Positions 11,290 to 55,976 of a stretch of DNA of 64,000 bases are shown piece by piece. The first letter of the stretch is position 1. Every line of letters begins with the position of its first letter. This DNA is from a virus: UHGV virus genome UHGV-0125682; one strand, 5' to 3'. The notes under the pieces were generated by a model, which was not told the origin of the DNA, did not search any database, and saw nothing but the letters and a program-made list of their open reading frames with translations. Made by a program: the position numbers and the translations under genes.

Positions 11290-11301
11290 CGTTGAATCGA
11301 T

Positions 11302-11604: not shown

Positions 11605-11787
11605 GGGATTTCTCCGCAGCAAAGTGGTCAACTTTTTCAATCTTAATGCGCACAATGTGCATATTCAAGTTTTATTCTTCACTTTGTTACGAGAGGGGCC
11701 AGCCAATATTTCTAGTTGAAAAGATCCATCATCAAAAATCACATACTGATTATGCTGCCGCAAACTGAAAACATTTCGCGGTGACTC

Positions 11788-14492: not shown

Positions 14493-14510
14493 AAGTTAAA
14501 TTTCTAACAT
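14493..14510 (-). promoter_or_regulatory. Operator-like motif (AAGTTAAATTTCTAACAT)
   Basis: Instance of recurring 18-bp motif AAATTAGTTTTCTAACAT. Confidence 0.4.
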
Positions 14511-14597
14511 AGTGTATTTATATACACTGTTGATCCTGGTGGATGGGATCGAGTAGGATCGCGGTCACTGCTCCGGTAGCGACTGCCAAAAAAGCAA

Positions 14598-15645: not shown

Positions 15646-15698
15646 CCTGTGTGTCTACAAAACATCCCAATGATCGGAAAATGCTCGTTCGATGATTT

Positions 15699-15716
15699 GT
15701 GTTAGAAAATTAATTT
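15699..15716 (+). promoter_or_regulatory. Operator-like motif (GTGTTAGAAAATTAATTT)
   Basis: Recurring motif; upstream of icd/ant module. Confidence 0.45.
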
Positions 15717-25165: not shown

Positions 25166-25426
25166 ATGCGAAAGAATCGTAGGTTTACGGTCGAAGACCT
25201 AAAGGAATATTCCATATCGAAGGGGTATATCCTTGAGTTCCACCGATACAAGAAGGTTTTTACGCTGCGAAAAGCAGAAAACCCTGCGAACTGGAGCTGG
25301 ATATACTTTCCTCACACCGATGATAAGTTGGTAGAACTTGTTGATGATTTAACCTATGAAGGTTGGTTGATCGCAATCGACAAGACAATCAAAGAATTAT
25401 CCGAACAGGATAAAATAACCCTTTAA
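25166..25426 (+). CDS. Hypothetical protein
   Basis: 86 aa ORF. Confidence 0.45.
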   Translation: MRKNRRFTVEDLKEYSISKGYILEFHRYKKVFTLRKAENPANWSWIYFPHTDDKLVELVDDLTYEGWLIAIDKTIKELSEQDKITL

Positions 25427-26604: not shown

Positions 26605-26643
26605 TATTGCATCTTCCGATACCGTCATCAAACTAATAAAATA

Positions 26644-26660
26644 TGTTAGAAAACTAATTT
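26644..26660 (+). promoter_or_regulatory. Operator-like motif (TGTTAGAAAACTAATTT)
   Basis: Recurring motif upstream of 26682 gene. Confidence 0.45.
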
Positions 26661-27890: not shown

Positions 27891-27892
27891 TG

Positions 27893-27909
27893 TGTTAGAA
27901 ATCTAAAAT
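27893..27909 (+). promoter_or_regulatory. Operator-like motif (TGTTAGAAATCTAAAAT)
   Basis: Recurring motif at start of ORF-poor island. Confidence 0.4.
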
Positions 27910-28048
27910 CACAATTCGAATGTATTGATTGTGAAGGTAACTTAACATAGAATTTTCCTTGCTGGTGGGCGGTACCCACGTTTCGCTTGCTGGGCTTGAT
28001 AGTCACTTATTGGTTATTGTTCGCCCACCAGCATTTAACAAATTAAAG

Positions 28049-28065
28049 TGTTAGAAAAGTATAGT
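28049..28065 (+). promoter_or_regulatory. Operator-like motif (TGTTAGAAAAGTATAGT)
   Basis: Recurring motif. Confidence 0.35.
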
Positions 28066-28250
28066 AACGCAAGAGCACGCTTTGGCACCGTGCAGGCCAA
28101 AGTTCAGCAGGTTTAGTGCGGAAAGTGGTTTCAGAGAGAGCACTTTGCGGAGTAAACGACAATACATGTTGAGCCAAGGAAGGTCTTTTTAAGGTGTTTA
28201 TTGATGATGGTCCGGCAGAGAGTAACGGTACATGCTGCATCTAATCATCA

Positions 28251-28316
28251 ATGCACATCTTCAACATTAAGGAGGCATAGGGATTTTTGTGGCGGTTACC
28301 TTTTGCCCTGAGTCTC
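28251..28316. other. Long hairpin 1 (13-bp perfect stem CAACATTAAGGAG, 40-nt loop)
   Basis: Perfect inverted repeat; no credible ORF. Confidence 0.45.
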
Positions 28317-28543
28317 CTTAATGTTGCGGTAATGCACCTATGCGGATGTGGCCTTGCATTGTGTCTTGAAAGAATGGGGTAAGGCCGGGGATATCCCCAG
28401 GGGGAGGCACCCCCGCTGCAACGAACAGCCACAGACGGCAGTCGAGTGATGGAAACGTGCAAAGACTTTAAACCTCGTTACGGCTGGCGTGGCAAACGCG
28501 ACAACCGAGACAGAGCGGTGACGGGCGGAGAGAGTGCCGCATC

Positions 28544-28620
28544 AAGAAAGAAGCCGACTTGTGATCCCTTTCAGCGGGCATTTGAAAGTGAATCCAGCTC
28601 AGGCAGTCGGCTTCTTTCTT
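28544..28620. other. Long hairpin 2 (15-bp perfect stem AAGAAAGAAGCCGAC, 47-nt loop)
   Basis: Perfect inverted repeat with nested CTTTCA/TGAAAG; terminator 21 bp downstream. Confidence 0.45.
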
Positions 28621-28640
28621 GTGTGAGATGTAGCGTATTT

Positions 28641-28664
28641 GCCCATCTTCGGGTGGGCTTTTTT
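28641..28664 (+). terminator. Rho-independent terminator inside non-coding island
   Basis: GCCCATC-TTCG-GGTGGGC followed by TTTTTT. Confidence 0.6.
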
Positions 28665-28850
28665 AGGGTTTTCGTCATGGTTAGCGACTTTGCGGCGGTT
28701 TATAAACTGACCATTAAAGTAAATGCAAACGATGATCTGATGATGGTAGCGGCCTAAGAAGCCAGACGCCACGGGGTATGAGTCGTCCCCCGTCAAAAAA
28801 TCGACCGCAGAGTGTCCCCGTCTGTGTATTAGGGAACGGGGAGGCATAAC

Positions 28851-28923
28851 AGGCAAGGGCGCTGGTGTGATTAACCAGATGAATGAGAAGGGTCAGGTCT
28901 TTCTGGTCAGCGCCCTTACCTGT
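28851..28923. other. Long hairpin 3 (15-bp stem, one mismatch, 43-nt loop)
   Basis: CAGGCAAGGGCGCTG ... CAGCGCCCTTACCTG. Confidence 0.4.
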
Positions 28924-29124
28924 TACGTCCCTCCCGCGTAACAGCCATTGATTAATGGCTTTCTGGGATAACATCCTACTACGGGTATATCCCGTCATGC
29001 TGAAGGCGCTAATCACGCTGGAAGCCAGGGTTGTGCATCCCCTGTTACCGAATTGCAGCCAGGGCGCGGTGCGCCGAAAAGCATACGGAGGTGGAAGCCC
29101 TCGCCGGAGACGTACCCGGCAAGT

Positions 29125-29201
29125 GATGGTGTAGCTCAGTAGGATAGAGCAGCAGCCTTCTAAGCTGTCGGTCGGTGGTTCGAATCCACCCACCATCGCC
29201 A
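29125..29201 (+). tRNA. tRNA-Arg (anticodon TCT)
   Basis: Cloverleaf folded by hand: acceptor GATGGTG/CACCATC, D-arm GCTC..GAGC, anticodon loop CTTCTAA, T-loop TTCGAAT, 3' GCCA. Confidence 0.85.
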
Positions 29202-29203
29202 AT

Positions 29204-29279
29204 GCCGGTTTAGCTCAGTTGGTAGAGCGCCTGCCTTGTAAGCAGGATGTCAGCGGTTCGAGTCCGTTAACCGGCACCA
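29204..29279 (+). tRNA. tRNA-Thr (anticodon TGT)
   Basis: Acceptor GCCGGTT/AACCGGC, D-loop AGTTGGTA, anticodon loop CTTGTAA, T-loop TTCGAGT, 3' ACCA. Confidence 0.85.
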
Positions 29280-29288
29280 ACACAACAG

Positions 29289-29365
29289 GTAAGGGTATTT
29301 TGCGACGTCGGAGATCGCCGTGCTTGGCAGAGGGTTCGAATCCCTACGAAGTACCCTTACCGTTG
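29289..29365 (+). other. tRNA-like remnant / hairpin 4 (10-bp stem around canonical T-loop GGGTTCGAATCCC)
   Basis: GGTAAGGGTA...TACCCTTACC stem; has T-arm but no D-arm or anticodon arm. Confidence 0.4.
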
Positions 29366-29508
29366 TGATGAAGTGCAGCTCTTTGAAGCAACCAGAAGAT
29401 AAGCATCTGGCTTCACAACATAAACCGCAGGAACGACCAATAAACGGTAGTCCGTATGGAGAACACCCCGTTGAGGAAGAGGCCTGGCCGGAACCGTAAC
29501 CGGCACTA

Positions 29509-29598
29509 CAACGTTGAGAACACTGGCGTAACGGGGTCATATCCCAATCTATGAATAAATGTTGCGTTGCAGCGTGACAACCAGTGTTCTCAACATTG
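29509..29598. other. Long hairpin 5 (18-bp stem, one mismatch, 54-nt loop)
   Basis: CAACGTTGAGAACACTGG ... CCAGTGTTCTCAACATTG. Confidence 0.4.
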
Positions 29599-29917
29599 TG
29601 GTGAATGCGCAGGCTGATGCGCGAAAGACATTGCAGCTATTGCGGAAAAGAGCTGTTCGGCGGGGCAATTAAACGCCCGTGAGAGTCTGAAATAACCGCA
29701 AGCCGGAGATCAGCACCGGTCGCCACAATAACGGGAGAGTAGGGAGCATGGTGCTCAAGCAGTCTTGAAAACCGTCCCATTGCGCACGCGGAACAGTTAA
29801 AACAATCCTCCTTAGTGGTTAAGTCAAACATCCCGGCGTTAATTGTTAACTGGTTAACGTCACCTGGAGGCACCAGGCACCGCAGCTTTTTTATTCGTTA
29901 AATAATGGAGTGAGAGG

Positions 29918-30154
29918 ATGCAGAACAATCCGAACAAATGTCGAACGCTATGGGTGCGGTTATATATTTATGTCGTCCTCTGTTTGATTGTGTCACTGGT
30001 TCTGTATGTTTGGCTTTTGCCAAATATGATCTCATCTGACAGCACAATACTTGTATTGTTGGGAGTCCTTCTCGCGCTCATTTACCCGGCTTTTGCAGTA
30101 GTCTTTTTTCGTGAAAAAACCAGGAAATTGATTAATGAAAAAAACGTTGATTAG
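29918..30154 (+). CDS. Small membrane protein
   Basis: 78 aa, two hydrophobic helices; overlaps start of next gene. Confidence 0.45.
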   Translation: MQNNPNKCRTLWVRLYIYVVLCLIVSLVLYVWLLPNMISSDSTILVLLGVLLALIYPAFAVVFFREKTRKLINEKNVD

Positions 30155-30962
30155 TGCAGCGATTATTTTTGGTTCTTTATGTCTGACCGGATGCGACCGG
30201 GTAGAACCAGGCAATGTAGGGATCAAAGTAAATAAGCTGGGGGATGATAAAGGTGTCGGCGAAGTAGTTGGCGTTGGTCGCTACTGGACAGGCTGGAACA
30301 CAGAAGTTTATATCTTCCCGACCTTTAAGCAAATGAAGACCTATGATGATCCGTTCAGCTTCCAAATGAGCGACGGGACAACAATTGGTTACCACATTGG
30401 TGTAGCTTACAAGGTTGATCCGGCAAAAGTCACAACTGTATTTCAGACCTACCGCAAAGGCGTGGATGACATTACCGACACCGACCTGCGCCAGAAGATT
30501 GCCGACGCACTTAACCGACTGGCCAGCAAAATGACCACCGACAAATTTATCGACGGTGGCAAGTCTGAACTACTGGATGCAGCTCTTAAAGACATCCAGG
30601 AAGAAATGACGCCCATCGGTATTCAGGTAATGAGCCTCTCATATGTGGGCAAGCCGGAGTACCCGCCAACCGTTATCGACAGCATTAATGCCAAAGTCAC
30701 GGCGAACCAGAAAACTCTGCAACGCGAGCAGGAAGTCAAGCAACGCGAAGCAGAAGCCAACATGCTGCGCGCAGAAGCTGCCGGACAGGCCGATGCCATT
30801 CGCACAAAAGCCCAGGCTGAAGCTGATGCCATTCGTTTACGCGGTGAGGCTCTGCGCCAGAACCCCGGCGTTATGGAGTTGGAAGCGATCAACAAATGGA
30901 ACGGAACGCGACCGCAGTATATGACCAGTAATACCGCTGTTCCGTTTGTTCCGGTGAAATAA
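30135..30962 (+). CDS. SPFH/band-7-like lipoprotein (P1 Plp-like position near tRNAs)
   Basis: Lipobox LSAAIIFGSLCLTGC; coiled-coil A/E/Q/R-rich C-terminal region. Confidence 0.6.
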   Translation: MKKTLISAAIIFGSLCLTGCDRVEPGNVGIKVNKLGDDKGVGEVVGVGRYWTGWNTEVYIFPTFKQMKTYDDPFSFQMSDGTTIGYHIGVAYKVDPAKVTTVFQTYRKGVDDITDTDLRQKIADALNRLASKMTTDKFIDGGKSELLDAALKDIQEEMTPIGIQVMSLSYVGKPEYPPTVIDSINAKVTANQKTLQREQEVKQREAEANMLRAEAAGQADAIRTKAQAEADAIRLRGEALRQNPGVMELEAINKWNGTRPQYMTSNTAVPFVPVK

Positions 30963-30975
30963 CCAAATAGAGAAC

Positions 30976-31107
30976 ATGATGGAATTTTGGACGTTTGCCG
31001 ACAAGAACCCTTGGTGGACATTTTTATTTCTGCTGGTGGTTGCATATGGGGTCGAGCAAGCAGCAAAAGCCTTACGCGGTCCTGGCAAAAAGCGTAAGCG
31101 GAATTAA
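30976..31107 (+). CDS. Small hydrophobic peptide (below ORF-track length cut-off)
   Basis: ~43 aa MMEFWTFADKNPWWTFLFLLVVAYG...KKRKRN; ends 10 nt before tRNA. Confidence 0.3.
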   Translation: MMEFWTFADKNPWWTFLFLLVVAYGVEQAAKALRGPGKKRKRN

Positions 31108-31116
31108 CAGTAATCT

Positions 31117-31192
31117 GGCCCTTTAGCTCAGTGGTTAGAGCTGGCGACTCATAATCGCACGGTCACCGGTTCAAGTCCGGTAGGGGCCACCA
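31117..31192 (+). tRNA. tRNA with CAT anticodon (Met or lysidine-modified Ile2)
   Basis: Acceptor GGCCCTT/AGGGGCC, D-loop AGTGGTTA, anticodon loop CTCATAA, T-loop TTCAAGT, 3' ACCA. Confidence 0.85.
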
Positions 31193-32613: not shown

Positions 32614-32645
32614 TGTTAGATGAATGGAATTAATTTTCTAATATA
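32613..32645. promoter_or_regulatory. Paired operator-like motifs in inverted orientation
   Basis: TGTTAGA...TAATTTTCTAATA upstream of 32722 gene. Confidence 0.4.
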
Positions 32646-33114: not shown

Positions 33115-34475
33115 GTCTGGTTAATTGGGAGGAGCACCGCGCCCGCTTTATAGCGTTGCGTGAAGAAAAAGGGATCACTGTAAAGGAATACTGTGAGGAG
33201 CATGGCCTTAGCTTCAATACAGCCAGAAAGCATCTCAATATGAAAAAAAATGAGGTGCGGTCGCAGGTAAAGACAACAAAAAAAAGCACCAAATCACCTG
33301 AAAAAAAACGGGCGGGAAGAGCAACAAAAAAGCTGGAAGAGGGTGCAGAAAAAACAAAATTTACAGAAATTGACAATTCGCAGGGCGCAGGTTCTTTCCG
33401 AAGTATGCCGAGAAAGAAAACTTCGGATCATGAAAATAATGCAAATAATAACAATGAGATAAAAGAATCTGTCAGGAGATCATTGCGCGAAAAAATGGCG
33501 AAAATGATCCCCGAAGAAGATAAAAGCGCCCCAAAAATTGAGGGATCTTCAGCAATGATCCCTGGCGGTGCTGTGCAGCGTGCCACATTGCCCACTACGA
33601 ATGTGGCTCGCGATATGATGAAGAACGGCGCAGAAGAACACCTGCGGTTAGCAATTCAAATGGCGCAAGAGCGCGCACTTCAGTATCAAAGCATTGTTGA
33701 TCAGGAGGCCGAACGTCTACAGGCGGAAATAGACGCCTTGGGCGATAAAGAGCCAGAAGGAATGCACCCTGGGCAGCGCCTTCTCGGTCTAATCAGTGAC
33801 GCTGCCTACTACATGAATGATTTTATCAGTAGGTTGGCAGCTATATATCAGTCCGAACAAAAGCTGCGACAGGGGGATGAAAAGCTTCGTCAGAGCGCTC
33901 GCCAGCAAGCATTCAAAGAGGCTGAGGCCAGAGAAAAACTCGAATTAGCACGCCTACAGGCCGAACAGCGTGGCAAAGAGATTGAATATCGCATTGGCGC
34001 TGACGCACGCGCAGCCAGAGTTATCGCCGCCGCTATACGTATGCGTGAGCGCGAGGAACTGGATGATATCAGTGTTGCTGAATACATCGAGCGCCAGGGG
34101 GTCAGCGTCCCGGCTATCCTCGCGGCGCGCGCGGCGAAAGCTATCACTCTTCTCGAACCACCTGTTTCTGACGTCAATGATGTTGATGATGAACAGCTGG
34201 ACAAAGAGGCAAGGGAGTTTGCAACGCTTCAGGCTAACCATCCGCAATGGCTGGCAGAGCGCCGGGCGGATGTGGCAACCATTGTTGAAGAATTGGGGTG
34301 CGGAGATTACGACCGCAATGGCGAGCGTAAAGCTGGAGAATTCGAGGCCAACGACGAAGAGCTGGATATTGACCCTTCGGCAACGGCTGAAATTTACGGT
34401 GATTATGATGCATCTGATGCAGGGTATGACGCCGGAGATGATGATATCGCGATAGAACCGCCGGAGGATGATTAA
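33111..34475 (+). CDS. pacA: Terminase small subunit (PacA-like)
   Basis: 454 aa; N-terminal HTH ITVKEYCEEHGLSFNTARKHL; K-rich linker; acidic C-terminus; GATC-hexamer cluster inside; directly precedes large terminase. Confidence 0.7.
   Translation: MSLVNWEEHRARFIALREEKGITVKEYCEEHGLSFNTARKHLNMKKNEVRSQVKTTKKSTKSPEKKRAGRATKKLEEGAEKTKFTEIDNSQGAGSFRSMPRKKTSDHENNANNNNEIKESVRRSLREKMAKMIPEEDKSAPKIEGSSAMIPGGAVQRATLPTTNVARDMMKNGAEEHLRLAIQMAQERALQYQSIVDQEAERLQAEIDALGDKEPEGMHPGQRLLGLISDAAYYMNDFISRLAAIYQSEQKLRQGDEKLRQSARQQAFKEAEAREKLELARLQAEQRGKEIEYRIGADARAARVIAAAIRMREREELDDISVAEYIERQGVSVPAILAARAAKAITLLEPPVSDVNDVDDEQLDKEAREFATLQANHPQWLAERRADVATIVEELGCGDYDRNGERKAGEFEANDEELDIDPSATAEIYGDYDASDAGYDAGDDDIAIEPPEDD
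33420..33565. other. Candidate pac site (clustered TGATCC/GGATCA Dam hexamers)
   Basis: GATC at 33426, 33506, 33545 and 33557 within ~140 bp of pacA. Confidence 0.35.
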
Positions 34476-35983
34476 TGGCTGGCGGGCGCAAGATTAAATG
34501 CGTCACCAGCGATCCACGCTGGCGCGATATGGTAATCAAATACCGCTACAACTTTACCCAAGCTGTTGTCGATATTTTTGGGATGTTCCCCTCCCACCAG
34601 CAGCAGCAGATCATTCAGTCAGTGCAGGAAACGGGGAGTAGGACTACCGTCACGTCCGGACACGGAACGGGGAAGTCGTCCCTTACCGCGATGTTGCTGT
34701 TGATTTTTATGATCCTGTTCCCCGATGCCCGTGTCATCATTGTTGCTAACAAGATAGGCCAGGTAAAAACAGGCGTATTCAAATACGTTAAACAGTATTG
34801 GGCGAATGCAGTTAAGCGTCATGGGTGGTTGCAGACCTATTTTGTCCTCTCTGACACCATGTTTTATGAGCGCTCCCGTAAGGGGATTTGGGAAGTTCTC
34901 TGCAAAGGTTATCGACTCGGCAACGAAGAAGCGCTGGCGGGGGAACATGCGGCACATTTGCTTCTAATTCTGGATGAAGCATCTGGTATATCTGATAAGG
35001 CGATCGGCGTAATGACCGGTGCTCTTACTGAAGAAGATAACCGGATGTTGATGCTATCCCAGCCAACAAGGCCAAGTGGTTATTTCTACGATTCGCACCA
35101 TTCTCAAGCAAAAACCCCAGACAACCCGAAAGGGATCTGGACAGCAATTGTTCTTAACTCGGAAGAATCACCGTTCGTCACACCACAATTCATCAAGCAG
35201 AAGCTTCTGGAATATGGCGGGCGCGATTCTATTGAGTACATGGTCAAGGTGCTTGGTCAGTTCCCACGAGAAATTAACGGCTATTTGCTTGGTCGTGATG
35301 AATGCGATCGCGCAGCTCGCCGCAAGGTGTTGTTGGAGAAAAACTGGGGATGGGTGGCAACGGCTGACGTTGGTAATGGGCGAGATAAGTCGGTCCTCAA
35401 CATCTGCAAGGTATCTGGTCACAGGGATAAGCGGCGCGTTGTTAACTTTAAGGTAATGGAGATGCCTGGCACTATGGACCCATTGGCCTTTGCTGACTTC
35501 ATATATAACGAATGTACGCCGGAAAAATACCCGAATATAACAATCGCGGTTGATGCCGATGGTTTTGGTTCTGATACGTGTGCGCAGTTGGTGCGTCGTG
35601 GTGCGAACCCGGTACGTATTCGGTGGGGAAAACCCATGTTTGCAAACAAAGACAGGGAGCGATTTGTTAATCAGCGTGCCTACGCAAATATTATCGCGCG
35701 AGATGCCATAAAGTCAGGGCGTATGCGGATAGACAGTGACCCTAAAACGGCAGAGCAAGCGTCAAAAATCCCCTTTTTACTGAATGAAGAAGGGAAAATG
35801 GCGATGATGCGCAAAGAGCACATGCGGCAAAAGCTAAACATCAAATCGCCTGACCGATGGGATACCTACTGCTTCACTATGCTGGTGGACTATGTGCCTG
35901 CTAATGAAGATATTGGTGCCGAAATGGCAACTTTTCGGGATCAGGTTCTGGCGGATATCGAAATGCCGGATCTGGATATATAA
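34475..35983 (+). CDS. pacB: Terminase large subunit (PacB-like)
   Basis: 502 aa; Walker A TSGHGTGKSS; Walker B LLLILDEASG; ATG overlaps pacA stop. Confidence 0.85.
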   Translation: MAGGRKIKCVTSDPRWRDMVIKYRYNFTQAVVDIFGMFPSHQQQQIIQSVQETGSRTTVTSGHGTGKSSLTAMLLLIFMILFPDARVIIVANKIGQVKTGVFKYVKQYWANAVKRHGWLQTYFVLSDTMFYERSRKGIWEVLCKGYRLGNEEALAGEHAAHLLLILDEASGISDKAIGVMTGALTEEDNRMLMLSQPTRPSGYFYDSHHSQAKTPDNPKGIWTAIVLNSEESPFVTPQFIKQKLLEYGGRDSIEYMVKVLGQFPREINGYLLGRDECDRAARRKVLLEKNWGWVATADVGNGRDKSVLNICKVSGHRDKRRVVNFKVMEMPGTMDPLAFADFIYNECTPEKYPNITIAVDADGFGSDTCAQLVRRGANPVRIRWGKPMFANKDRERFVNQRAYANIIARDAIKSGRMRIDSDPKTAEQASKIPFLLNEEGKMAMMRKEHMRQKLNIKSPDRWDTYCFTMLVDYVPANEDIGAEMATFRDQVLADIEMPDLDI

Positions 35984-36011
35984 AAGCCCCGCGATGCGGG
36001 GCCGGTTGTGA

Positions 36012-37049
36012 TTACCAGAGCTTCGCGGCGTACTGCGTTTGGGGGAATGTGTATCCGTAACGTTCTTCGATTGCTTTGCCGTATTTTTTACGAGCTTCAT
36101 TCAGTTTAATGCCGGTCAGGTCGTCTCCAGAGGCCATCATTACGTCTAACAATTCCAGATCCATTTTATCCAACCTTGCCATTGCTTCACGTGATGTACG
36201 TATCTTACGCTCAATGATATGGCGAATAGCCGGATCGGCATCCTCCAGCATCTTAGCGGATTTCTGCTTAAGGCTTTCATTGCGAATATCGATGTTCCTT
36301 AAGATGTACGACTTCGCAACGTAGCTTGGCTGGTGTTTTTCCAGGTCACGAACACGATATAAGTTAAAATCGCCGAGAAGGCTGCATGGTACCGATTCGA
36401 CGCCAGAATAAATTGTAATGCTCCGGCGTTCACCAACATTATTGACAACGGGGATCGTTGTCTTCGGTAGTCTTGCGAAAACCAATGCGCCATGTGCGCC
36501 AACTCTAAAGCGAGAAAGGGCATTGCTGCCTTCGATGTTTGTTGTCAGCACAACATCTGTATATGCCTCTTTACGCGCCCGGTAGATCTCGCCTTCAGGC
36601 TCAGCTTCAAAGAAGCGCTGTTCTTCTTCAAGAGCACCTACGATTTGAGAAAAAACCCTATTTTTCAGGCTTTTCTTTATGATTTTGTCGTATTTTTTTA
36701 GCAATTGTTCACGTGTAAATGTACGTGTTGTTGTAGCGCTTTGCACAACGACATGCGTGCTTTGATTGGTGTCCTCAATGATGAATGGGATCGGAGAATA
36801 TACAGACTCAACAATGTTCGACGCTTTGCCGTCGGCATCGCGGCACATGTCAACGAAGGCTTTCCATTCAGCAAGACATTTTTCAGCTTCTTCTAATATG
36901 TTTTGGTCATGCGTTAATGCAACATGGCGGAATTCCTCGCCAGCATAACTGGTATCATGGAAAACAGAGTTTGCGACCACCAGCTCTTTCCACCGTTCAG
37001 CGGTTTGCAGGAACCGTTTGTACTCTTTCTCGATCGACTTCTTACTCAT
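36012..37049 (-). CDS. Putative C1-type immunity repressor (by position between pacB and rox)
   Basis: 345 aa; divergent from dre; operator-like motif 12 bp upstream of its start. Confidence 0.4.
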   Translation of the reverse strand: MSKKSIEKEYKRFLQTAERWKELVVANSVFHDTSYAGEEFRHVALTHDQNILEEAEKCLAEWKAFVDMCRDADGKASNIVESVYSPIPFIIEDTNQSTHVVVQSATTTRTFTREQLLKKYDKIIKKSLKNRVFSQIVGALEEEQRFFEAEPEGEIYRARKEAYTDVVLTTNIEGSNALSRFRVGAHGALVFARLPKTTIPVVNNVGERRSITIYSGVESVPCSLLGDFNLYRVRDLEKHQPSYVAKSYILRNIDIRNESLKQKSAKMLEDADPAIRHIIERKIRTSREAMARLDKMDLELLDVMMASGDDLTGIKLNEARKKYGKAIEERYGYTFPQTQYAAKLW

Positions 37050-37060
37050 TATTCCTACTC

Positions 37061-37078
37061 GATTTAGTTTTCTAACAT
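37061..37078 (-). promoter_or_regulatory. Operator-like motif (GATTTAGTTTTCTAACAT)
   Basis: Recurring motif immediately upstream of putative repressor gene. Confidence 0.45.
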
Positions 37079-37259
37079 AAAATTACTATGACAAATTTAT
37101 GTCGAATAACAGGGTGAGTAAAGGATCGAACTGTGATTTTTTGTCATCAATTTTAGAAAACCAACCGTAGAAACCACACTTCGCAAATTAAAGACCATGA
37201 AGGCAACGTGTTACTGGTCATCATCAATCTATGATGGATTAAAAAAAATCGGCATTTTA

Positions 37260-37291
37260 TAACTTTAAATAATTGGCATTATTTAAAGTTA
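37260..37291. other. rox: rox-type recombination site (14-bp inverted arms, 4-bp spacer)
   Basis: TAACTTTAAATAAT-TGGC-ATTATTTAAAGTTA; matches rox as recalled; 150 bp upstream of Cre-like gene. Confidence 0.8.
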
Positions 37292-37443: not shown

Positions 37444-38472
37444 ATGGGCGAATTAATTATCTCTGGCAGTTCCGGTGGTTTTCTGCGCAACATTGGCAAA
37501 GAGTACCAGGAAGCCGCAGAAAACTTTATGCGGTTCATGAATGACCAGGGAGCTTATGCGCCGAATACTCTGCGCGACCTCCGTTTGGTGTTTCATTCCT
37601 GGGCGCGCTGGTGTCACGCTCGCCAGCTTGCCTGGTTTCCGATCTCACCAGAAATGGCCCGCGAGTATTTTCTTCAGCTGCATGATGCCGATCTGGCTTC
37701 GACCACCATTGATAAGCACTACGCCATGCTGAACATGCTGCTTTCGCATTGTGGCCTTCCACCACTTTCGGATGATAAAAGTGTTTCTCTGGCTATGCGG
37801 CGCATCCGGCGCGAAGCGGCAACTGAAAAAGGCGAACGAACAGGCCAGGCTATACCGCTGCGGTGGGACGATCTGAAACTGCTCGACGTCCTGTTGTCCA
37901 GGTCTGAACGGCTGGTGGCCCTGCGCAACCGGGCTTTTCTCTTTGTTGCATACAATACGCTGATGCGTATGTCGGAAATCTCGCGTATTCGTGTAGGAGA
38001 TCTGGACCAAACAGGTGACACTGTCACGCTACATATTTCACACACGAAGACAATAACGACCGCCGCCGGGCTTGATAAGGTGCTTTCCCGTCGCACTACC
38101 GCTGTGCTGAATGACTGGCTGGATGTTTCCGGGCTTCGCGAACATCCTGACGCAGTGCTGTTCCCGCCGATACACCGTAGCAATAAGGCCAGGATCACGA
38201 TAACGCCCCTTACTGCACCTGCAATGGAGAAAATATTCAGCGACGCCTGGGTGTTGCTGAATAAAGGAGATGCTACGCCAAACAAAGGAAGATACCGGAC
38301 GTGGACCGGGCATAGTGCACGCGTCGGGGCCGCTATCGATATGGCTGAAAAGCAGGTCTCTATGGTGGAGATTATGCAGGAAGGAACCTGGAAGAAACCG
38401 GAAACACTTATGCGGTATCTGCGCCGTGGCGGCGTGTCTGTGGGGGCTAATAGCCGCCTGATGGATTTATAA
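37444..38472 (+). CDS. dre: Tyrosine site-specific recombinase, Cre family (Dre-like)
   Basis: 342 aa; Cre-like ...WTGHSARVGAAIDMAEKQVSMVEIMQEGTWK...; 34 bp cognate inverted-repeat site upstream. Confidence 0.9.
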   Translation: MGELIISGSSGGFLRNIGKEYQEAAENFMRFMNDQGAYAPNTLRDLRLVFHSWARWCHARQLAWFPISPEMAREYFLQLHDADLASTTIDKHYAMLNMLLSHCGLPPLSDDKSVSLAMRRIRREAATEKGERTGQAIPLRWDDLKLLDVLLSRSERLVALRNRAFLFVAYNTLMRMSEISRIRVGDLDQTGDTVTLHISHTKTITTAAGLDKVLSRRTTAVLNDWLDVSGLREHPDAVLFPPIHRSNKARITITPLTAPAMEKIFSDAWVLLNKGDATPNKGRYRTWTGHSARVGAAIDMAEKQVSMVEIMQEGTWKKPETLMRYLRRGGVSVGANSRLMDL

Positions 38473-38488
38473 ATTAAATTTCTAACAC
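38471..38488 (-). promoter_or_regulatory. Operator-like motif (AAATTAAATTTCTAACAC)
   Basis: Recurring motif just after dre stop. Confidence 0.4.
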
Positions 38489-38545
38489 ATCTTTTTAGAT
38501 TAACATCTTTGCTGTAAAGTACCCTCGCCTATTTAGGAGGGTGCT

Positions 38546-43430: not shown

Positions 43431-43450
43431 TACTGTTTATTCATACAGTA
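43431..43450. promoter_or_regulatory. LexA (SOS) box
   Basis: TACTGT-TTATTCAT-ACAGTA between humD and divergent 43603 gene. Confidence 0.8.
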
Positions 43451-44222: not shown

Positions 44223-45711
44223 GGTCCGCCTCATGCTTTTCAGCCACCAGCGGCAATAAAGCCCTGGCCATCTTATGAACCAATAGTGCATCAATAATGC
44301 CAAGCGTATGCCCCGGCTTAATGTTTAATGCCGCCTCAAGGTGACACCTTTCCAGGCCACTTTTCTCGGCTTGTTTATGATGATCTGGTGTAATAACGTC
44401 GCCCAAAACACGGCTAATTCTTTCTCGTAATTGCTGGGTGCCAGCACACTTGATCGCTGTATCGTGGAGACGGTTAACCAGTTCGCGATAAACATGCGGC
44501 TTAATTCGGATACGTTCACCGGTGACGCCCTTTCCTGGTGCTGGCACCGAACTATCCGGAATATCCGGATAGTTGCCTGCCAGTCTACGCAAAACGGCCT
44601 TAACAGCCTCAATACGGTCATCATCGCAATTTTCCAGCGTATCTATGCGATCGAGCATGATGATGGCGTTATCAATATCAGGATTGCCGGTCCACTCATT
44701 ACCGCGATTGGATTCGGCAGCCTGGTTGCCGCGTACTGGTTGATTATCGGCTTTACCCAGTCTGTCGTTGCTGCATGAATGCCCTTCCAGCAAGGCCAAT
44801 GCTTGTCGCATGAAATACGCAATATGTTTGCCGTGGTAATCGTCTTCATCGATGTGAAAAGCGATACTGCGGATGTATTCAATTGCGTTTTCAATGGCCT
44901 CCGGCGTTATCGGCGCTGACATATTTTGATTTTGGAGTGCCAAGACGCGACTGGCATCCTCAACGTTCTTCACTGCATCTGCGCAGTAGTTATAGCGATT
45001 GCATTCCACTAACTTCTGCTTGAGATTTTCAATTGCTTGCGCGACATCAGCCTGTATTTCCGGAACTGGCGGAACGGCTGTCTGCTGCTCTCGAACGTCA
45101 TTAGTCGCTATCGGTTCTGCTGCCAGCTGACTGGCATATTTGTTAATGGTAACGATAAGCTCTTGCTCGGCCTCATCCAGACAATCACCGATACCTCGCC
45201 TGTCACCGTCAAAATCATCGAAATCGGCACGAATCTTGGCAACCTTCTGGATTGCGGACAACACCTCACTAGGAATTACCGGATAGTTGGTTGACGTTTC
45301 CGCGATTTCCCGAAAATTATTGGTTGACGAATTCTTGTTTTCCCGAAAGTTTCCGGACTGAAGCATGGCTTCGCGGCAATCGTTCCAGCCTGTAGCGTAT
45401 GCAGCCGCTTTGCTGCTGCCTTCAACTGGCGCATCCTGCCAATACATTTCTTCCGGCACTACCTGCACCTGAGGGGTGGCGTAGAGTGGAATTCCTCCCC
45501 CTCCACCAGAAAATTCATTGCGAGCGTTATACTCACGACCATCTGCGTCATCACGCATCCACGCCACCGGTTCTGCTTCCAGCGATGCCAGCGCGATACG
45601 AAACACATTGGCAAGCAGGCTGTCTGAAGATTGGTTATCGTGCGCCGGGTCGCTCAGGAAGCCTGTGATGAATGATTTAATCTCCGCACGTTCTTTGGTA
45701 ATAGTGGTCAT
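44206..45711 (-). CDS. Hypothetical protein; C-terminal module shared with 54184-54798
   Basis: 501 aa; Gly5 run; C-terminal ...KPHVYRELVNRLHD...GTQQLRERI... Confidence 0.55.
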   Translation of the reverse strand: MTTITKERAEIKSFITGFLSDPAHDNQSSDSLLANVFRIALASLEAEPVAWMRDDADGREYNARNEFSGGGGGIPLYATPQVQVVPEEMYWQDAPVEGSSKAAAYATGWNDCREAMLQSGNFRENKNSSTNNFREIAETSTNYPVIPSEVLSAIQKVAKIRADFDDFDGDRRGIGDCLDEAEQELIVTINKYASQLAAEPIATNDVREQQTAVPPVPEIQADVAQAIENLKQKLVECNRYNYCADAVKNVEDASRVLALQNQNMSAPITPEAIENAIEYIRSIAFHIDEDDYHGKHIAYFMRQALALLEGHSCSNDRLGKADNQPVRGNQAAESNRGNEWTGNPDIDNAIIMLDRIDTLENCDDDRIEAVKAVLRRLAGNYPDIPDSSVPAPGKGVTGERIRIKPHVYRELVNRLHDTAIKCAGTQQLRERISRVLGDVITPDHHKQAEKSGLERCHLEAALNIKPGHTLGIIDALLVHKMARALLPLVAEKHEADHANES

Positions 45712-45721
45712 GTGTTACTCC

Positions 45722-45985
45722 TTAACCCGCAGTGCTTTCAACTGATGAGGGGAACAAAATCTTTTCATCAAACCCTGCATTCATATCATGAACAGCAACA
45801 CACCAATCCATCGACGAACGATTATCAAGAGCCTCCATGATTTCATCCATGCGGCGCAGGTCATACAGGTAAATGCTTTTATCGCCAATGGTGTAAAAGC
45901 CAATTTTTTTCGGTGATGGACAGCGATCAAGAACGTCCTGTAATTCGTTCAACCATGCCCGTTCTTTTTTTGTTAAAGTTGCCAT
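45722..45985 (-). CDS. Hypothetical protein
   Basis: 87 aa from MATLTKKERAWL...; RBS AAGGAGA. Confidence 0.5.
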   Translation of the reverse strand: MATLTKKERAWLNELQDVLDRCPSPKKIGFYTIGDKSIYLYDLRRMDEIMEALDNRSSMDWCVAVHDMNAGFDEKILFPSSVESTAG

Positions 45986-45986
45986 A

Positions 45987-46175
45987 TCACTCTCCTTTAG
46001 TGCGCAAATGGTTTTTCCAGCGGTTTTGCGCCGCGCTGGGCTTTTTGCAAAAACCACAATCCATCATCCCGTAATATTTCATCAACCCCATCCGTCGGTT
46101 GCTGAGTCTCACCCACTGCCAGACGCCAGGAGCGTTTCTACGAACTAACAGAATCTTTGCTTTACGGTTTTTCAT
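45987..46175 (-). CDS. Hypothetical small basic protein
   Basis: 62 aa ORF. Confidence 0.3.
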   Translation of the reverse strand: MKNRKAKILLVRRNAPGVWQWVRLSNRRMGLMKYYGMMDCGFCKKPSAAQNRWKNHLRTKGE

Positions 46176-46347
46176 CGCTTTGCTCTCCTGCGTCTCTTTG
46201 CTGCTCGTCGTGCCGCTGCAATACCGGTATGGCGGCGCTTTGGTGCCGGGATGATGTTGTCAGCCATCAGGACATACGGCTTTGCAATTAGCGCAGAAGC
46301 CCAAAAACGAGTCGGGTACGGTAACAAGCCGATACATGCCACACGCA

Positions 46348-47109
46348 TTACTCACCTCCTTTGATGCGAATGCCTGCAGCGCGGATTGCAGCGATGACTT
46401 CAGAAACTTTGTATGCCATTACCGTTTGGTAATCATCGTGAAAATCTGTTCGATGAAGCATGCTGCTACGTTCCGGGAGCGATATTTCCCGAGCATCCAG
46501 TTCCTTAACGCGTTCCTCCAGTTCGTAGACCCTGCATTGTTCTCTATCATCAATCAGATATAACCCAAGACATTCGCTTTCTACCCAACCGCCAAAATCA
46601 TGATCGTAACGCTCACATGAAAACTCACCGTCACCGTCCTTTGTTGGAATGGTGTAACTATCTAATGGGCCACCATATGTCGGCACATTTCCCAATGTTG
46701 GATGCTCAATCCACATGAAAAATGCACGTCCGGTTATTGGGCAAATATCTGGCCGCCATTGGTTACGAACAGCCTTGGTTTCGGATAATTCTTCAGCGTG
46801 TTGTTTTACTTCCTCAAGCTCAACTCTCAGCTTCCCTACCGTTAGCGCAATATCCTCGTTCTCCTGATCGCGGCGTTTTATGTATTGCTGGTTTCTTTCC
46901 CGTTCATCCAGAAGCGCCAAGACGGTAGCCGGATTGGCTGCGGCGATGAATTCAGCATCACGAGATTCGTTTTCACTGAACACCATAGCTATTTGCTCAT
47001 GGTTTATGCCGTCAGTGGAGTAAATCTCATCGTCGAATTCAACAGCCCACTTACCTTTCGTAGCCTTCTCTGCCGCCTCACGCAGTGCCTGATAGTCAAT
47101 CTTGCTCAC
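46348..47109 (-). CDS. Hypothetical protein (MSKIDYQALREAAE... N-terminal family, Ea22-like)
   Basis: 253 aa; N-terminus shared with 47847-48032. Confidence 0.55.
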   Translation of the reverse strand: MSKIDYQALREAAEKATKGKWAVEFDDEIYSTDGINHEQIAMVFSENESRDAEFIAAANPATVLALLDERERNQQYIKRRDQENEDIALTVGKLRVELEEVKQHAEELSETKAVRNQWRPDICPITGRAFFMWIEHPTLGNVPTYGGPLDSYTIPTKDGDGEFSCERYDHDFGGWVESECLGLYLIDDREQCRVYELEERVKELDAREISLPERSSMLHRTDFHDDYQTVMAYKVSEVIAAIRAAGIRIKGGE

Positions 47110-47410
47110 TGGCAGCCTCCTTTGCCGGGATTTCTAACTTTTGAGTGGTTGTATCAAATTCAAACAACTTAACCACGTCATCAAACAGGACATAATCACC
47201 ATCAGGATCTTCAGTCATATCTGCGCCACAATCCTGACCGCACGAGTCGCAACCATCCATATCAAGCTCGTATCGCTTCAGGTTTGCGATATTTGATAAA
47301 TTCAGCGCCAGTACAGCCAGGTCATAAACCTCTTCGGCAGTGACATCGCTGTTCAGTCCCATTTCATGGCGATATATGATTTTTTCTACCCGTTGTTTTG
47401 TGATTGTCAT
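47096..47410 (-). CDS. Hypothetical acidic protein
   Basis: 104 aa; overlaps neighbours by a few nt. Confidence 0.45.
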   Translation of the reverse strand: MTITKQRVEKIIYRHEMGLNSDVTAEEVYDLAVLALNLSNIANLKRYELDMDGCDSCGQDCGADMTEDPDGDYVLFDDVVKLFEFDTTTQKLEIPAKEAASEQD

Positions 47411-47850
47411 TTTTGCTCACCTCCCTGTTCTTCCAGAAAAATACGCATAGCCTCAAGCATCTCTTCGGTGTCATACGGTGACAACTTGTCACGCAGGATG
47501 TGTTCAATGCTGTTAATGAACTTGCGGATTGCTTTGCGTTCAATTTCAGCCAGGAAAGCGTCGGTGGCTGACATATTTCCTGTTGCCTTCATGGCCTTCA
47601 AAATAACCAGAACGCCATCTCGCCCAACCACCTCAGCGATAACCTCAGTGTTGTCGCCAACAACATCGCAGAATGCCTGAACTGCCTTACGAGCCAGCTC
47701 ATTCTCCACTGCCAGCGCCGCGCACTTGGCCTCAAGAGCGGCAACCACTTCCTGATGGTCTTTGTACTTAACGTATGAGCCGGAGATGTCATCACCTTCG
47801 GTGTTTAGCCATGCGTCATTGCAATTCACTGCGTAGGTTCTGATGCTCAT
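47407..47850 (-). CDS. Hypothetical protein, ATDAFLAEI...EQ(L/I)RKGG paralogue family
   Basis: ~147 aa from MSIRTYAV...; motif shared with 51553, 52191, 53392 genes. Confidence 0.5.
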   Translation of the reverse strand: MSIRTYAVNCNDAWLNTEGDDISGSYVKYKDHQEVVAALEAKCAALAVENELARKAVQAFCDVVGDNTEVIAEVVGRDGVLVILKAMKATGNMSATDAFLAEIERKAIRKFINSIEHILRDKLSPYDTEEMLEAMRIFLEEQGGEQK

Positions 47851-48032
47851 GTTGATGCTCTCCCGCCCCTGACAGACGCCAGGCCAGTCAATAAAGTATC
47901 CGCACAATGCCTACCCTCAGACGTGCGCGCAGGATAAATGCCGTTATGACCCGGCAAAATATATGCTACCCATTCATCTTGCGTTGCCTGTTCCGCCGCC
48001 TCGCGCAGTTCTTGATAGTTAATTTTGCTCAC
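47847..48032 (-). CDS. Short ORF with Ea22-like leader fused to unrelated sequence (possible remnant)
   Basis: GTG start; first 22 aa match N-terminus of 46348-47109, then divergent. Confidence 0.3.
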   Translation of the reverse strand: MSKINYQELREAAEQATQDEWVAYILPGHNGIYPARTSEGRHCADTLLTGLASVRGGRAST

Positions 48033-48720
48033 TGGTTGCCCCCTGAATACGCTTAAACTCGATTACCCACACCCAAGGATTAGCGTTCCAACTATCTTCG
48101 CCATAAATTGATTTCCATAGGCTACGGAAACATGGGTAATGCTTATCGCCAATGAGGGTCGATTCTGTTGGTGCGCCCTCAGCCCTTGCATCGCATTCGC
48201 TGATATCGTTCAACCGCTCAACGCGCACGTTGGTAATTTCCAGAAGAATGCGCGATGCCCAGCGCGGCATGTGAATTGATGGACACCACCCGCCATCAAA
48301 TTTTTCATTCACAGTGTGAGGTTTCCAGTCGGCATCATCGGGTATCGACCACAAGCCGTAATCACCCGGCTTTTGCTCACAACTGGCCCGATAAATCCTT
48401 GCTGCGTTCTTCTCATCGCCACGACAAAGGTTGTCGTTCCAGTCCACACTGCAACCATCCTCATTGCCTAATATCGCCCACGCCTCACGGACCCATATGC
48501 GATCACCAACGTTACCGAACGGGCATAAACCATGTTCAGGTGCATCCATAACGTGGGTATAGACACCATTGCGTTTCTTTGTCGGTTTACGGATAACCAG
48601 GCAGTTATCGGCCCTGACATTTTTTACAGGTCGGCGAGTCTGCGTCTTCCTTCCTTCGAGGATGGCCCTGACCATCTCATCGTTAAAAATCATCCCGCGT
48701 TCTTTCATTTTTTGATCCAC
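48019..48720 (-). CDS. Conserved phage protein (MIFNDEMVRAILEGRKTQTRR N-terminus)
   Basis: 233 aa. Confidence 0.55.
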   Translation of the reverse strand: MDQKMKERGMIFNDEMVRAILEGRKTQTRRPVKNVRADNCLVIRKPTKKRNGVYTHVMDAPEHGLCPFGNVGDRIWVREAWAILGNEDGCSVDWNDNLCRGDEKNAARIYRASCEQKPGDYGLWSIPDDADWKPHTVNEKFDGGWCPSIHMPRWASRILLEITNVRVERLNDISECDARAEGAPTESTLIGDKHYPCFRSLWKSIYGEDSWNANPWVWVIEFKRIQGATSEQN

Positions 48721-48724
48721 CTCA

Positions 48725-49720: not shown

Positions 49721-49762
49721 AATGTATACCGACTCTGTTTTGTTCCGAGCGGTAAAATAATA

Positions 49763-49793
49763 TGTTAGAAAACTAAAATCAATGTTCTAACAC
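49763..49793. promoter_or_regulatory. Operator-like motifs (TGTTAGAAAACTAAAAT plus TGTTCTAACAC)
   Basis: Recurring motif between two genes of the leftward operon. Confidence 0.45.
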
Positions 49794-49817
49794 ATTTTGA
49801 GTGCGTAAATGATTTGA

Positions 49818-51311: not shown

Positions 51312-51556
51312 TGTGGTGGCTCCTGCTTTTCTGCCTTTAATACCATGCGAGAACCATCATCCAGCTCCCAATTAATTTCACCGCCTTCAGCCATGACTAG
51401 ATGCCAAACGAGTTGTGCGGCCTCGTTGGTTACATCACGACCGCGATCATTGCCGACACGACGTTTTGTTCCATCCCCTAAGTCACGCATTTTTGCCAAC
51501 ACGATGGTTTTTGATAGCGGTGAAAAACCAAGCTGTAGTCGTGCGGTATTACTCAC
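51308..51556 (-). CDS. Hypothetical protein
   Basis: 82 aa. Confidence 0.4.
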   Translation of the reverse strand: MSNTARLQLGFSPLSKTIVLAKMRDLGDGTKRRVGNDRGRDVTNEAAQLVWHLVMAEGGEINWELDDGSRMVLKAEKQEPPQ

Positions 51557-52194
51557 TGTTTGCCTCCTTTTCGAAGCTGGTCAGCGAACCTATCAGCTGC
51601 ATCCGCGCAAGCAGAAGCAACGGAATCAAAAAATGGATCATCTCCGGTATCGCGCATCGTCAAAGCGAATGCCTCCACCCCTTGTGCCTGTATTTCTACA
51701 AGGTATGCCTTAGATGTAGTGCTTTTCGCCTCGCCTAATTCGTTATGAGCGATGTTCGCTATACATGCGATGTCTATATCTGGATGATTAATTGGGCAAT
51801 GGCTAAGAATTGCCTCAAGTGCTGCTTTTTTGCTTTGGCATTCCGCCACCATCGCCCCGCAATTGCTTTCATATTCGGCAATACGCTGTTTAGCAGCCTC
51901 CAGCTCAACACGCAGCTTCTCAAGCGTTAGAGCCATCTCCATGTTCTCGTCCAGCAGTTCAATCACATCAGGATCGCTATCATCAACTACTGTTATGCGC
52001 GATTTTTTGTAATGCTCGTCAGCATAAGTTCGTCCAGTTTTGAAGCATCCGTCGTCCTCCATGCCGGAACAGGCATAAACAACATGTGATCCAGATATGC
52101 GCTGCATTGACATTTCCTCGCCACAAACAGAGCATTTAGGCGCTGGTTTCGGTGAAAAACGTTCACGTAACGTATGATAGTAAAGCTCGCTCAC
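51553..52194 (-). CDS. Hypothetical protein, N-terminal zinc ribbon, paralogue-family C-terminus
   Basis: 213 aa; CSVCG...YACSG; ends ...FADQLRKGGKQ. Confidence 0.5.
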   Translation of the reverse strand: MSELYYHTLRERFSPKPAPKCSVCGEEMSMQRISGSHVVYACSGMEDDGCFKTGRTYADEHYKKSRITVVDDSDPDVIELLDENMEMALTLEKLRVELEAAKQRIAEYESNCGAMVAECQSKKAALEAILSHCPINHPDIDIACIANIAHNELGEAKSTTSKAYLVEIQAQGVEAFALTMRDTGDDPFFDSVASACADAADRFADQLRKGGKQ

Positions 52195-54798: not shown

Positions 54799-54989
54799 AA
54801 TTTCCCCAGCATCGTGACGAAAAACATCAGCACGGCAAAAAGCTCAATACCTAATTCAAGTAGCGCCAACGCCCCGAAAAAAAACACATAGAACAGGCCA
54901 ATCTCATTCACAGATGGCTGGTGGATCGCACTTAAAGCTATAAGCATCATGTCCTCCAAACATTTATCAGTGATGATATTAATGTTTTG

Positions 54990-55006
54990 TGTTAGAAAAT
55001 CAATTT
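54990..55006 (+). promoter_or_regulatory. Operator-like motif (TGTTAGAAAATCAATTT)
   Basis: Between the leftward operon and ref-like gene. Confidence 0.45.
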
Positions 55007-55067: not shown

Positions 55068-55646
55068 ATGCAGAAACAGAGCTATTGGGAGAAACAGAGA
55101 CAAAAAGCCATGCAAAAATTGGCTGACCCAGCCTGGCGAGAGGAACAAAGGGCAAAGCGCCTTCAACAAGCTCAACGCCAGCAGCAGCGAGCGAGAGAAA
55201 AAGCCGCATCGCCTGAATATCGGCAAAAGAAAATTGAAAAAGCAAAGCAATATGAACAGCGGAGAAAAGATAAAGCTGTATCCGCTCCGTCCAAAAAAAC
55301 ACGCACGTCACGCGGCCTGAAAGGCAGATCACTCACAGCCGATGAACGCCGGATACAGACCGCTATCGGTGCTCTCCCCTGCATTGCCTGCCATATTCAC
55401 GGGCAACATAGCCCAGTGGTATCCCTGCACCATATCTTCGGGAGAACGGCAGAGAACGCGCATAAATATGTCCTCCCTTTGTGTAAATGGCACCACCAGT
55501 ACGCAGCGCCAGCCGAGGTCAGAGAACAATATCCCTGGCTGGTCCCTGTTCATGCTGACGGAAAAATAGGCGGAAAAGCAGATTTCATGCGGCACAATGC
55601 CGATGAAATGACGTTGTATCAGATGGCGATTGAGTTGATAAATTAG
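55068..55646 (+). CDS. ref: HNH-type nuclease, P1 Ref-like
   Basis: 192 aa; K/R/Q-rich N-terminal ~95 aa then ...CIACHIHGQH...HHIFG...PLCKWHHQ. Confidence 0.5.
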   Translation: MQKQSYWEKQRQKAMQKLADPAWREEQRAKRLQQAQRQQQRAREKAASPEYRQKKIEKAKQYEQRRKDKAVSAPSKKTRTSRGLKGRSLTADERRIQTAIGALPCIACHIHGQHSPVVSLHHIFGRTAENAHKYVLPLCKWHHQYAAPAEVREQYPWLVPVHADGKIGGKADFMRHNADEMTLYQMAIELIN

Positions 55647-55657
55647 TTTTCTAACAT
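55640..55657 (-). promoter_or_regulatory. Operator-like motif (AAATTAGTTTTCTAACAT)
   Basis: Exact consensus instance just after ref stop. Confidence 0.45.
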
Positions 55658-55976
55658 TTTAAGTTGAATTGAAAAACTCTCCGATGTACATTCACTACCG
55701 ATTGGCACACCGGTCAACTTTTTGAGACAAACTGTTTAGTTTTTCGTATTATTGCCTCCGCCATACCTATGGCGGTGCAATATAGGTGGCTGAAAAGCCC
55801 CCGTTGACTCACGGTGTTCCAGCCTTTATTGCGCCGCCACCAGACCGTGGAACAGTCGATGGCGGCTCCGAAAGCAAGGAGTCACAACACTATGAACAAC
55901 TACAGTCTTTTCCCATCACTCGTCTTCCACCACTCACGCGATAATCTGCATTCTTTGCTCGCGCCGGGGGTGTCAA

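Follow-up and report, generated by a model that had tools for sequence, protein, structure and literature searches.

In phage P1, the C1 targets established by experiment include c1/coi, lpa, repL/kilA, the c4-ant operon, ref and dmt (PMC8546580; PMC4713147; P1 annotation). The control of ref by C1 is described in PMC4713147. The P1 C1 operator is asymmetric and has the consensus sequence ATTGCTCTAATAAATTT (PMC8546580). P1 carries coi, imcA and imcB upstream of c1, with a LexA site overlapping the coi promoter (PMC4713147). Coi is an antirepressor, and P1 also has a corepressor, Lxc. In a D6-like plasmid Lxc was not detected (PMC6799933).

A second described system is Escherichia phage D6. Its C1 is deposited as AAV84948.1 in AY753669 (the immC record) and as ASR76322.1 (D6_1) in MF356679 (the complete genome). 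The AY753669 entry is labelled [quoted passage not shown] and the MF356679 entry "prophage repressor". The c1 gene is already known, and its GenBank name dates from 2004. Operators are not annotated in the D6 records.

The c1 gene and its relation to P1 C1

The window analyzed here is the whole stretch of 64,000 nucleotides from the virus genome UHGV-0125682. The ORF listing gives a 345-aa ORF with an ATG start at 36012..37049 on the minus strand. When the phage collection was searched by tblastn, its product was 100% identical to D6 C1 over all 345 aa, which identifies the ORF as c1. The neighboring elements lpa, pacA, pacB, c1, rox and dre are the same as in D6 and the flanking DNA is about 96 to 99.5% identical. 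The initial annotation had pointed to a leftward 345-aa gene in the slot between pacB and a lox-type site, and the gene is indeed found there. It is convergent with pacB (34475..35983, plus strand) on one side, and rox and the gene for a Cre-type recombinase (dre) lie on the other, as in P1. The same c1 synteny is found in four relatives (L006 to L009). The gene and its landmarks are as follows.

35985..36003, minus strand: terminator-like GC hairpin and T run directly 3' of the c1 stop codon, common to pacB (terminator scan, 7 of 8 pairs GC)
36012..37049, minus strand: c1, D6-type C1 master repressor by homology (predicted function; ORF, PHROG, BLASTP, alignment and AlphaFold2 model)
37053..37056, minus strand: Shine-Dalgarno-like AGGA upstream of the c1 ATG, read from the sequence
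37260..37291, no strand assigned: rox, 32-bp palindromic site at which the Dre recombinase acts, equivalent to P1 lox (sequence; annotated in D6 records)
37444..38472, plus strand: dre, gene for a 342-aa tyrosine recombinase, beyond rox from c1

The reading as a C1-type repressor held up in the alignment with P1 C1, which is 283 aa long, as given initially. BLASTP of P1 C1 against the ORF gave an E value of 2e-8 with 21% identity across 240 aa, and the two proteins share phrog_1678 and PF27008. In a tblastn search of the whole window with P1 C1, the c1 ORF was found with an E value of 2.6e-6 and there was no other convincing match. The phrog_1678 profile matches the ORF at 2.8e-170 (profile positions 2 to 347 of 347) and P1 C1 at 2.6e-140 (positions 1 to 280). 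Precomputed Pfam assignments place the 99%-identical cluster representative, all relatives and P1-type C1 in PF27008 ("Phage_P7_repressor_C1"). The NCBIfam model NF041318 ("phage_rep_C1") scores the ORF at 25.4 bits (E = 8.9e-6, residues 7 to 240) and P1 C1 at 607.5 bits. Since the score of the ORF is far below the equivalog cut-off of 500 bits, it is considered a distant homolog and not an equivalog of P1 C1. A Pfam scan of D6 C1, P1 C1 and the C-terminal 100 aa gave no match (E values up to 1 for D6 and P1 C1); the Pfam copy that was scanned predates PF27008. A PDB sequence search with C1 found no relative.

An alignment of 16 sequences is collinear to residue ~240 and contains 16 invariant columns. 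Residues 1 to ~240 constitute the C1 core, which is shared with P1/P7 C1 together with the slot and orientation of the gene. Residues ~245 to 345 form a C-terminal extension that is specific to the D6 lineage and predicted to be helical: P1-type proteins end in a short basic tail whereas D6-type proteins have about 100 further residues. Only 133 family members turned up when 1.84 billion representatives were searched exhaustively with a profile; most are 250 to 285 aa long, and about ten, of 344 to 380 aa, have the D6-type extension. In a 60-sequence alignment R159 and G187 are invariant, and F13, R41, W62, P86, P88 and R157 are conserved in at least 90% of the sequences. In its presumed role (lysogeny maintenance, immunity and autoregulation at its own promoter) C1 resembles the lambda CI/LexA-type repressors, which are composed of an HTH and an S24 peptidase domain. 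In D6 C1, Pfam scans of the full-length sequence and of its last 100 residues detected neither an HTH nor an S24 domain, and the predicted operators are asymmetric and scattered over the genome rather than palindromic and clustered.

The P1 genes that accompany c1 have no recognizable counterparts in the D6-type window. P1 Coi, ImcA and ImcB showed no similarity anywhere in the window by tblastn (best E values of 0.35 to 1.1), in agreement with the earlier remark that coi/imc-like small ORFs are absent. Between c1 and rox the minus strand has just two ORFs of 20 aa or more; they are 33 and 24 aa long and overlap the promoter and operator elements described below. The spacer between the c1 ATG and rox is 210 bp of non-coding DNA as compared to ~700 bp in P1. 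A recognizable Lxc was not found in the window. An 86-aa ORF at 25166-25426 (plus strand), located in the lxc slot after ulx, was considered as a diverged Lxc and rejected; it gave no alignment and belongs to a different PHROG (phrog_6844, unknown function). The immunity region had been suspected of being remodeled, and the absence of coi/imcA/imcB, the short c1-rox spacer and the longer C-terminus of the protein all bear this out. The remodeled arrangement characterizes the D6 lineage as a whole and is no special feature of this window.

No LexA box was found near c1. The window contains a single perfect CTGT-N8-ACAG, at 43433-43448. This lone box is distant from c1 and its count is at chance level, and an SOS/LexA input at c1 was rejected on these grounds. 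By coordinate mapping it lies between hot and humD, ahead of the latter gene, which is UmuD-like.

Operator motif, c1 control region and predicted regulon

The motif TRTGTTAGAAAAYTAATT is found at 11 sites in 10 loci within the window. The site at c1 is the 18-mer ATTTAGTTTTCTAACATA, which reads TATGTTAGAAAACTAAAT on the c1 strand. As described initially, it is 12 bp away from the start codon (motif 37062-37079, gap 37050-37061, ATG at 37049), and the end coordinate of 37078 given at that time was one base short of the 18-mer. The 18-mer has eight matches in the window with up to three mismatches, while 0.04 are expected. A weight matrix made from the 18-mer sites detected the 11 sites at 18 to 31 bits (10 of 11 above 23), and the best scores in 20 composition-matched shuffles were 10.5 to 19.8. 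The putative operator consensus is TATGTTAGAAAATTAATT, an asymmetric 18-bp sequence with an invariant core of TTAGAAA; it is written here in the orientation that aligns it with the P1 operator architecture. None of the 10 loci falls within the greedily selected ORFs, which occupy 86% of the window, apart from two sites that reach into the stop-codon end of an ORF, one by a single base and the other by 6. In several cases the AATT at the 3' end of the motif continues into the TTG of a -35-like hexamer, and P1 Olpa shows the same.

The elements of the c1 control region are listed below.

37062..37079, minus strand: proximal operator, 12 bp from the c1 ATG, about +8 to +25 of the predicted promoter (score 30.2)
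37094..37122, minus strand: candidate c1 promoter, -35 TTTACT at 37122-37117, 17-bp spacer, -10 TAAATT at 37099-37094 (relaxed hexamer scan, 8 of 12 matches)
37149..37166, plus strand: weak distal operator-like site AATTTTAGAAAACCAACC, inverted and upstream of the -35 (score 11.7, in the noise range)

A strict sigma-70 scan found no leftward c1 promoter. Its single hit in the c1 control region is a rightward TTGGCA-16-TATAAT overlapping rox, which presumably serves dre. The c1 loci of three relatives were compared (L008, L006 and L007, with C1 proteins 89, 51 and 44% identical, respectively). All three have the order recombinase - c1 - pacB - pacA - lpa with no called gene between the recombinase and c1. 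A TGTTAGAAAA site is located just before the c1 ribosome-binding site in each of them, and in D6 the proximal operator is at the same place. An inverted site with a TTAGAAAA core is found 84 to 97 bp upstream of the proximal site in all three relatives; the core is preceded by TG in L006 and L007 and by AT in L008. In the window the distal and proximal sites are 87 bp apart, centre to centre. TTTACT-17-TAAATT is exact in L006 despite a diverged spacer sequence, and the c1 promoter was placed here because the hexamers and their spacing are kept in L006 though the spacer differs. The initial proposal of an operator at the gene's own promoter is thus supported, with one refinement in position: the operator is just downstream of TTTACT-17-TAAATT, a weak promoter-like sequence with phylogenetic conservation, and covers about +8 to +25. 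It is separated from the c1 ATG by 12 bp, and the corresponding distance in P1 is ~83 bp. Two inverted sites bracket the c1 promoter, which suggests cooperative or looped autoregulation of c1.

Outside the c1 region, the sites were assigned to genes by mapping onto D6 gene names and by Rfam matches. The predicted sites are as follows.

14494..14511, plus strand: putative operator between pro and repL, 171 nt before repL (lytic replication)
15698..15715, minus strand: putative operator ahead of the first immI-type module (c4 RNA, icd, antirepressor)
26642..26659, minus strand: putative operator 22 nt upstream of pmgS
27891..27908, minus strand: putative operator immediately 3' of the pmgS stop codon, then the promoter-like element TTGATT-17-TAGAAT
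32628..32645, plus strand: putative operator 76 nt before the ATG of lpa (late promoter activator)
38472..38489, plus strand: putative operator whose first base is the final one of the dre stop codon; the orf117-dut operon follows after 56 nt (score 26.9)
49761..49794, no strand assigned: putative bivalent operator, two inverted sites with a 2-bp overlap, 40 nt upstream of pdcB (scores 28.7 and 18.3)
54988..55005, minus strand: putative operator in the divergent ref/orf88 promoter region, 62 nt before the ref ATG
55641..55658, plus strand: putative operator at the ref 3' end, ahead of the second immI-type module (isrK-like RNA, C4 RNA, icd, antirepressor)

The architecture resembles that of P1, in which asymmetric operators of 17 to 18 bp are dispersed over the genome either singly or as overlapping inverted "bivalent" pairs. 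The pair at 49761-49794 looks like the overlapping bivalent operators annotated in P1. The site ahead of lpa is 76 nt before the ATG, and Olpa is 70 nt before the ATG of P1 lpa (P1 annotation). Scanning of the complete D6 genome with the same matrix found two further loci outside the window span. One of them is a bivalent pair just outside the window (64114-64147 in D6 coordinates), which precedes the hrdC-methylase (dmt) operon. Taken together, c1, lpa, repL, c4-ant, ref and the dmt operon (the last in the D6 genome) have predicted sites as in P1. The best reason for regarding the motif as the operator of the C1 homolog is this correspondence with the P1 C1 targets, and we infer the link between C1 and the motif from their co-occurrence and from the analogy with P1.

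The region following the site after pmgS (27891-29279) includes ~1.2 kb without a convincing ORF, and then tRNA-Arg(tct) and tRNA-Thr(tgt) on the same strand. The sequence may represent a C1-controlled tRNA operon with a long untranslated leader.

The operator sequence of the D6 type (TATGTTAGAAAATTAATT) is unrelated to that of P1 (ATTGCTCTAATAAATTT). The P1 operator has no match in the window with up to three mismatches, and the best match in D6 has four mismatches. It is therefore predicted that the element should be heteroimmune to P1 and P7. Within the D6 lineage, the operator of L006 (C1 51% identical) retains the TGTTAGAAAA half and its 3' half is altered, with roughly AATAGAT in place of YTAATT. 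The L006 operators are at 9885-9990, 14477, 16576, 16701 and 17990. The altered sequence hints that the 3' half-site of the operator could set immunity specificity within the D6 lineage.

Rfam located a C4 RNA at 15927-16012 in the first immI-type module, with an a1/b1 target element upstream at 15806-15858, and a C4 RNA at 56316-56403 in the second module. There are two separate C4 modules in the window (15806-16012 and 56193-56403), each followed by icd and an antirepressor gene and each behind a predicted C1 operator. As there is no Coi or recognizable Lxc, derepression presumably takes place via the two C4-RNA-controlled antirepressor modules. By analogy to immI of P1, dependence on these modules is the most likely arrangement in D6-type elements.

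For D6-type elements this analysis adds a predicted operator consensus and regulon map, which are statistically solid, and a conserved architecture of the c1 control region. The map predicts the immunity groups of D6-type phage-plasmids and the genes that would be silenced in their carriers.

Predicted fold, proposed mechanism and alternative readings

The AlphaFold2 model of the 345-aa C1 has a mean pLDDT of 82.9 and a pTM of 0.51. Up to residue ~232 it forms an alpha/beta core; residues 233-270 and 276-307 then make a long helical hairpin, and three short helices end the chain. In a Foldseek search of the PDB with this model, E. coli Tus-Ter complexes were the only significant matches (E = 1.8e-8 to 2.5e-6, probability 1.00, 273 to 304 aligned columns, TM 0.31 to 0.37); the next match had an E value of about 0.1. 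The model of P1 C1 (pLDDT 80.8) also matched only Tus in the PDB (E = 1.0e-8 to 4.1e-8, TM 0.42 to 0.48, 252 to 320 columns). The Tus references are PF05472 and PDB entries 1ecr and 4xr0-2. Tus has two alpha/beta lobes joined by DNA-contacting beta-strands, and the TM values of the comparison with this fold (0.31 to 0.48) are all below 0.5. The hhalign comparison of the C1 family with Tus gave 26% probability over 111 columns; the Tus profile is poor because the Tus homologs are all at least 81% identical. This weak match pairs C1 residues 87 to 197 with Tus residues 147 to 269 and places the conserved R157-x-R159 strand on the KIKRPVKV strand of Tus. In the Pfam scan (E values up to 1) C1 had no match to Ter (PF05472).

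Tus binds its asymmetric Ter site as a monomer, and P1 C1 is monomeric according to older biochemistry. The two proteins share no sequence family and differ in function, i.e. replication fork arrest for Tus and transcriptional repression for C1. The Ter site, AATTAGTATGTTGTAACTAAAGT, resembles the operator AATTAGTTTTCTAACATA; this likeness was judged not significant for AT-rich sequences and was set aside. In the literature searched we found no paper linking C1 to Tus. We consider the Tus-like fold of C1 a well-motivated hypothesis and not a result. The wider proposal, in which the whole P1-type C1 family would have the otherwise isolated Tus fold and the helical C-terminal module of the D6 type would replace the functions of Coi and Lxc, is tentative and in our estimate slightly more likely to be wrong than right. 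If true, the fold would explain how asymmetric 17-18-bp operators are read without a helix-turn-helix, and it would link the enterobacterial replication terminator Tus evolutionarily to the immunity repressors of phage-plasmids. C1 has no recognizable DNA-binding motif, and the prediction offers a possible reading mechanism and possible Tus ancestry. Together with the lineage-specific C-terminal module, the Tus-like fold is the structural lead that comes out of this work.

The ORF is most probably the D6-like c1, encoding the master repressor responsible for quiescence of the plasmid prophage and for superinfection immunity via dispersed operators (probability about 0.88); the repressor activity of the 345-aa protein is deduced from homology and the operator set. 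In the proposed mechanism C1, probably monomeric, would use a two-lobed alpha/beta core resembling Tus to bind the asymmetric 18-bp sites. Candidate DNA contacts are Arg41, Arg157 and Arg159, which are nearly invariant and lie on beta-strands. Bound C1 would occlude the promoters of lpa, repL, both c4-icd-antirepressor modules, ref, pdcB and pmgS, and in addition those of the putative tRNA operon, the operon downstream of dre and c1 itself. Autoregulation would occur through the proximal operator at about +8 to +25, possibly with the inverted distal site ~87 bp upstream. The ~100 helical residues at the C-terminus may supply a self-association or partner surface that is absent from P1 C1, although this is speculative.

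An unlikely alternative is that the ORF is a C1 homolog and that the TGTTAGAAAA motif is read by some other factor, such as a late-gene or host regulator, its adjacency to c1 being incidental. The motif is AT-rich and some of the sites precede genes that are not known to be C1-controlled in P1 (pmgS and pdcB), as this reading would allow. However, the sites also precede the early and immunity targets of P1 C1, namely lpa, repL, c4-ant, ref and c1 (PMC8546580; PMC4713147), and none is found ahead of late structural operons such as pacA. The distance from site to ATG at lpa is nearly that of P1 Olpa, and the motif stays before c1 in relatives whose C1 proteins are 44 to 89% identical. It is less probable still that the protein is a diverged C1 relative without an immunity role, its long C-terminus having a new function and immunity being provided mainly by the duplicated c4/ant modules or by another repressor. 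The low identity to P1 C1 (21%, far below the NCBIfam equivalog cut-off), the lack of Coi or Lxc partners and the presence of two immI-type modules are compatible with such a loss. On the other hand, gene, operator and synteny are intact in 140 plasmid records and in lineages down to 44% identity, the core residues conserved in the family are retained, and the genome-wide operator set fits no other candidate.

The predicted fold raises one more reading, in which a Tus-like protein would primarily block replication forks or helicases in a polar manner, and so control plasmid or lytic replication, instead of repressing transcription. Tus is the sole structural match for the D6 and P1 C1 models, and one of the sites adjoins repL, within which oriL is postulated in P1 (PMC9948254). 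We regard this as very improbable: P1 C1 is by experiment a transcriptional repressor (PMC8546580), the Pfam Ter family (PF05472) gives no sequence match, and the sites are intergenic, promoter-adjacent and present in either orientation, lacking the polarity toward the origin that a fork trap would have. The reading as a D6-type master repressor is therefore preferred.

Distribution and mosaicism of D6-type elements

c1 and its upstream region are present in 140 PLSDB plasmid records, mostly E. coli plasmids of ~90 to 95 kb, in which c1 is annotated as "phage repressor protein" or "hypothetical protein". D6-type phage-plasmids are common ~90-kb plasmids of E. coli and Salmonella. That an immunity gene is recognizable from its position and an adjacent motif alone is the main thing confirmed by the c1 case.

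Based on nucleotide comparison, the window is a D6-like phage-plasmid of the P1 family that is distinct from D6 itself. Its nucleotide identity to D6 is 87 to 99% in blocks, with mosaic gaps and a different tRNA cargo. Four segments (9012-11736, 29621-31111, 45073-48723 and 51313-53619) have no megablast match to D6 and are mosaic replacements with respect to the reference phage. The tRNA cargo of the window consists of Arg-tct, Thr-tgt and Met-cat (29125-31192), while D6 carries Ser-tga, Thr-tgt and Asn-gtt (7145-7850). The D6 tRNAs in MF356679 are placed on the minus strand by ARAGORN and on the plus strand in the feature table of the record.
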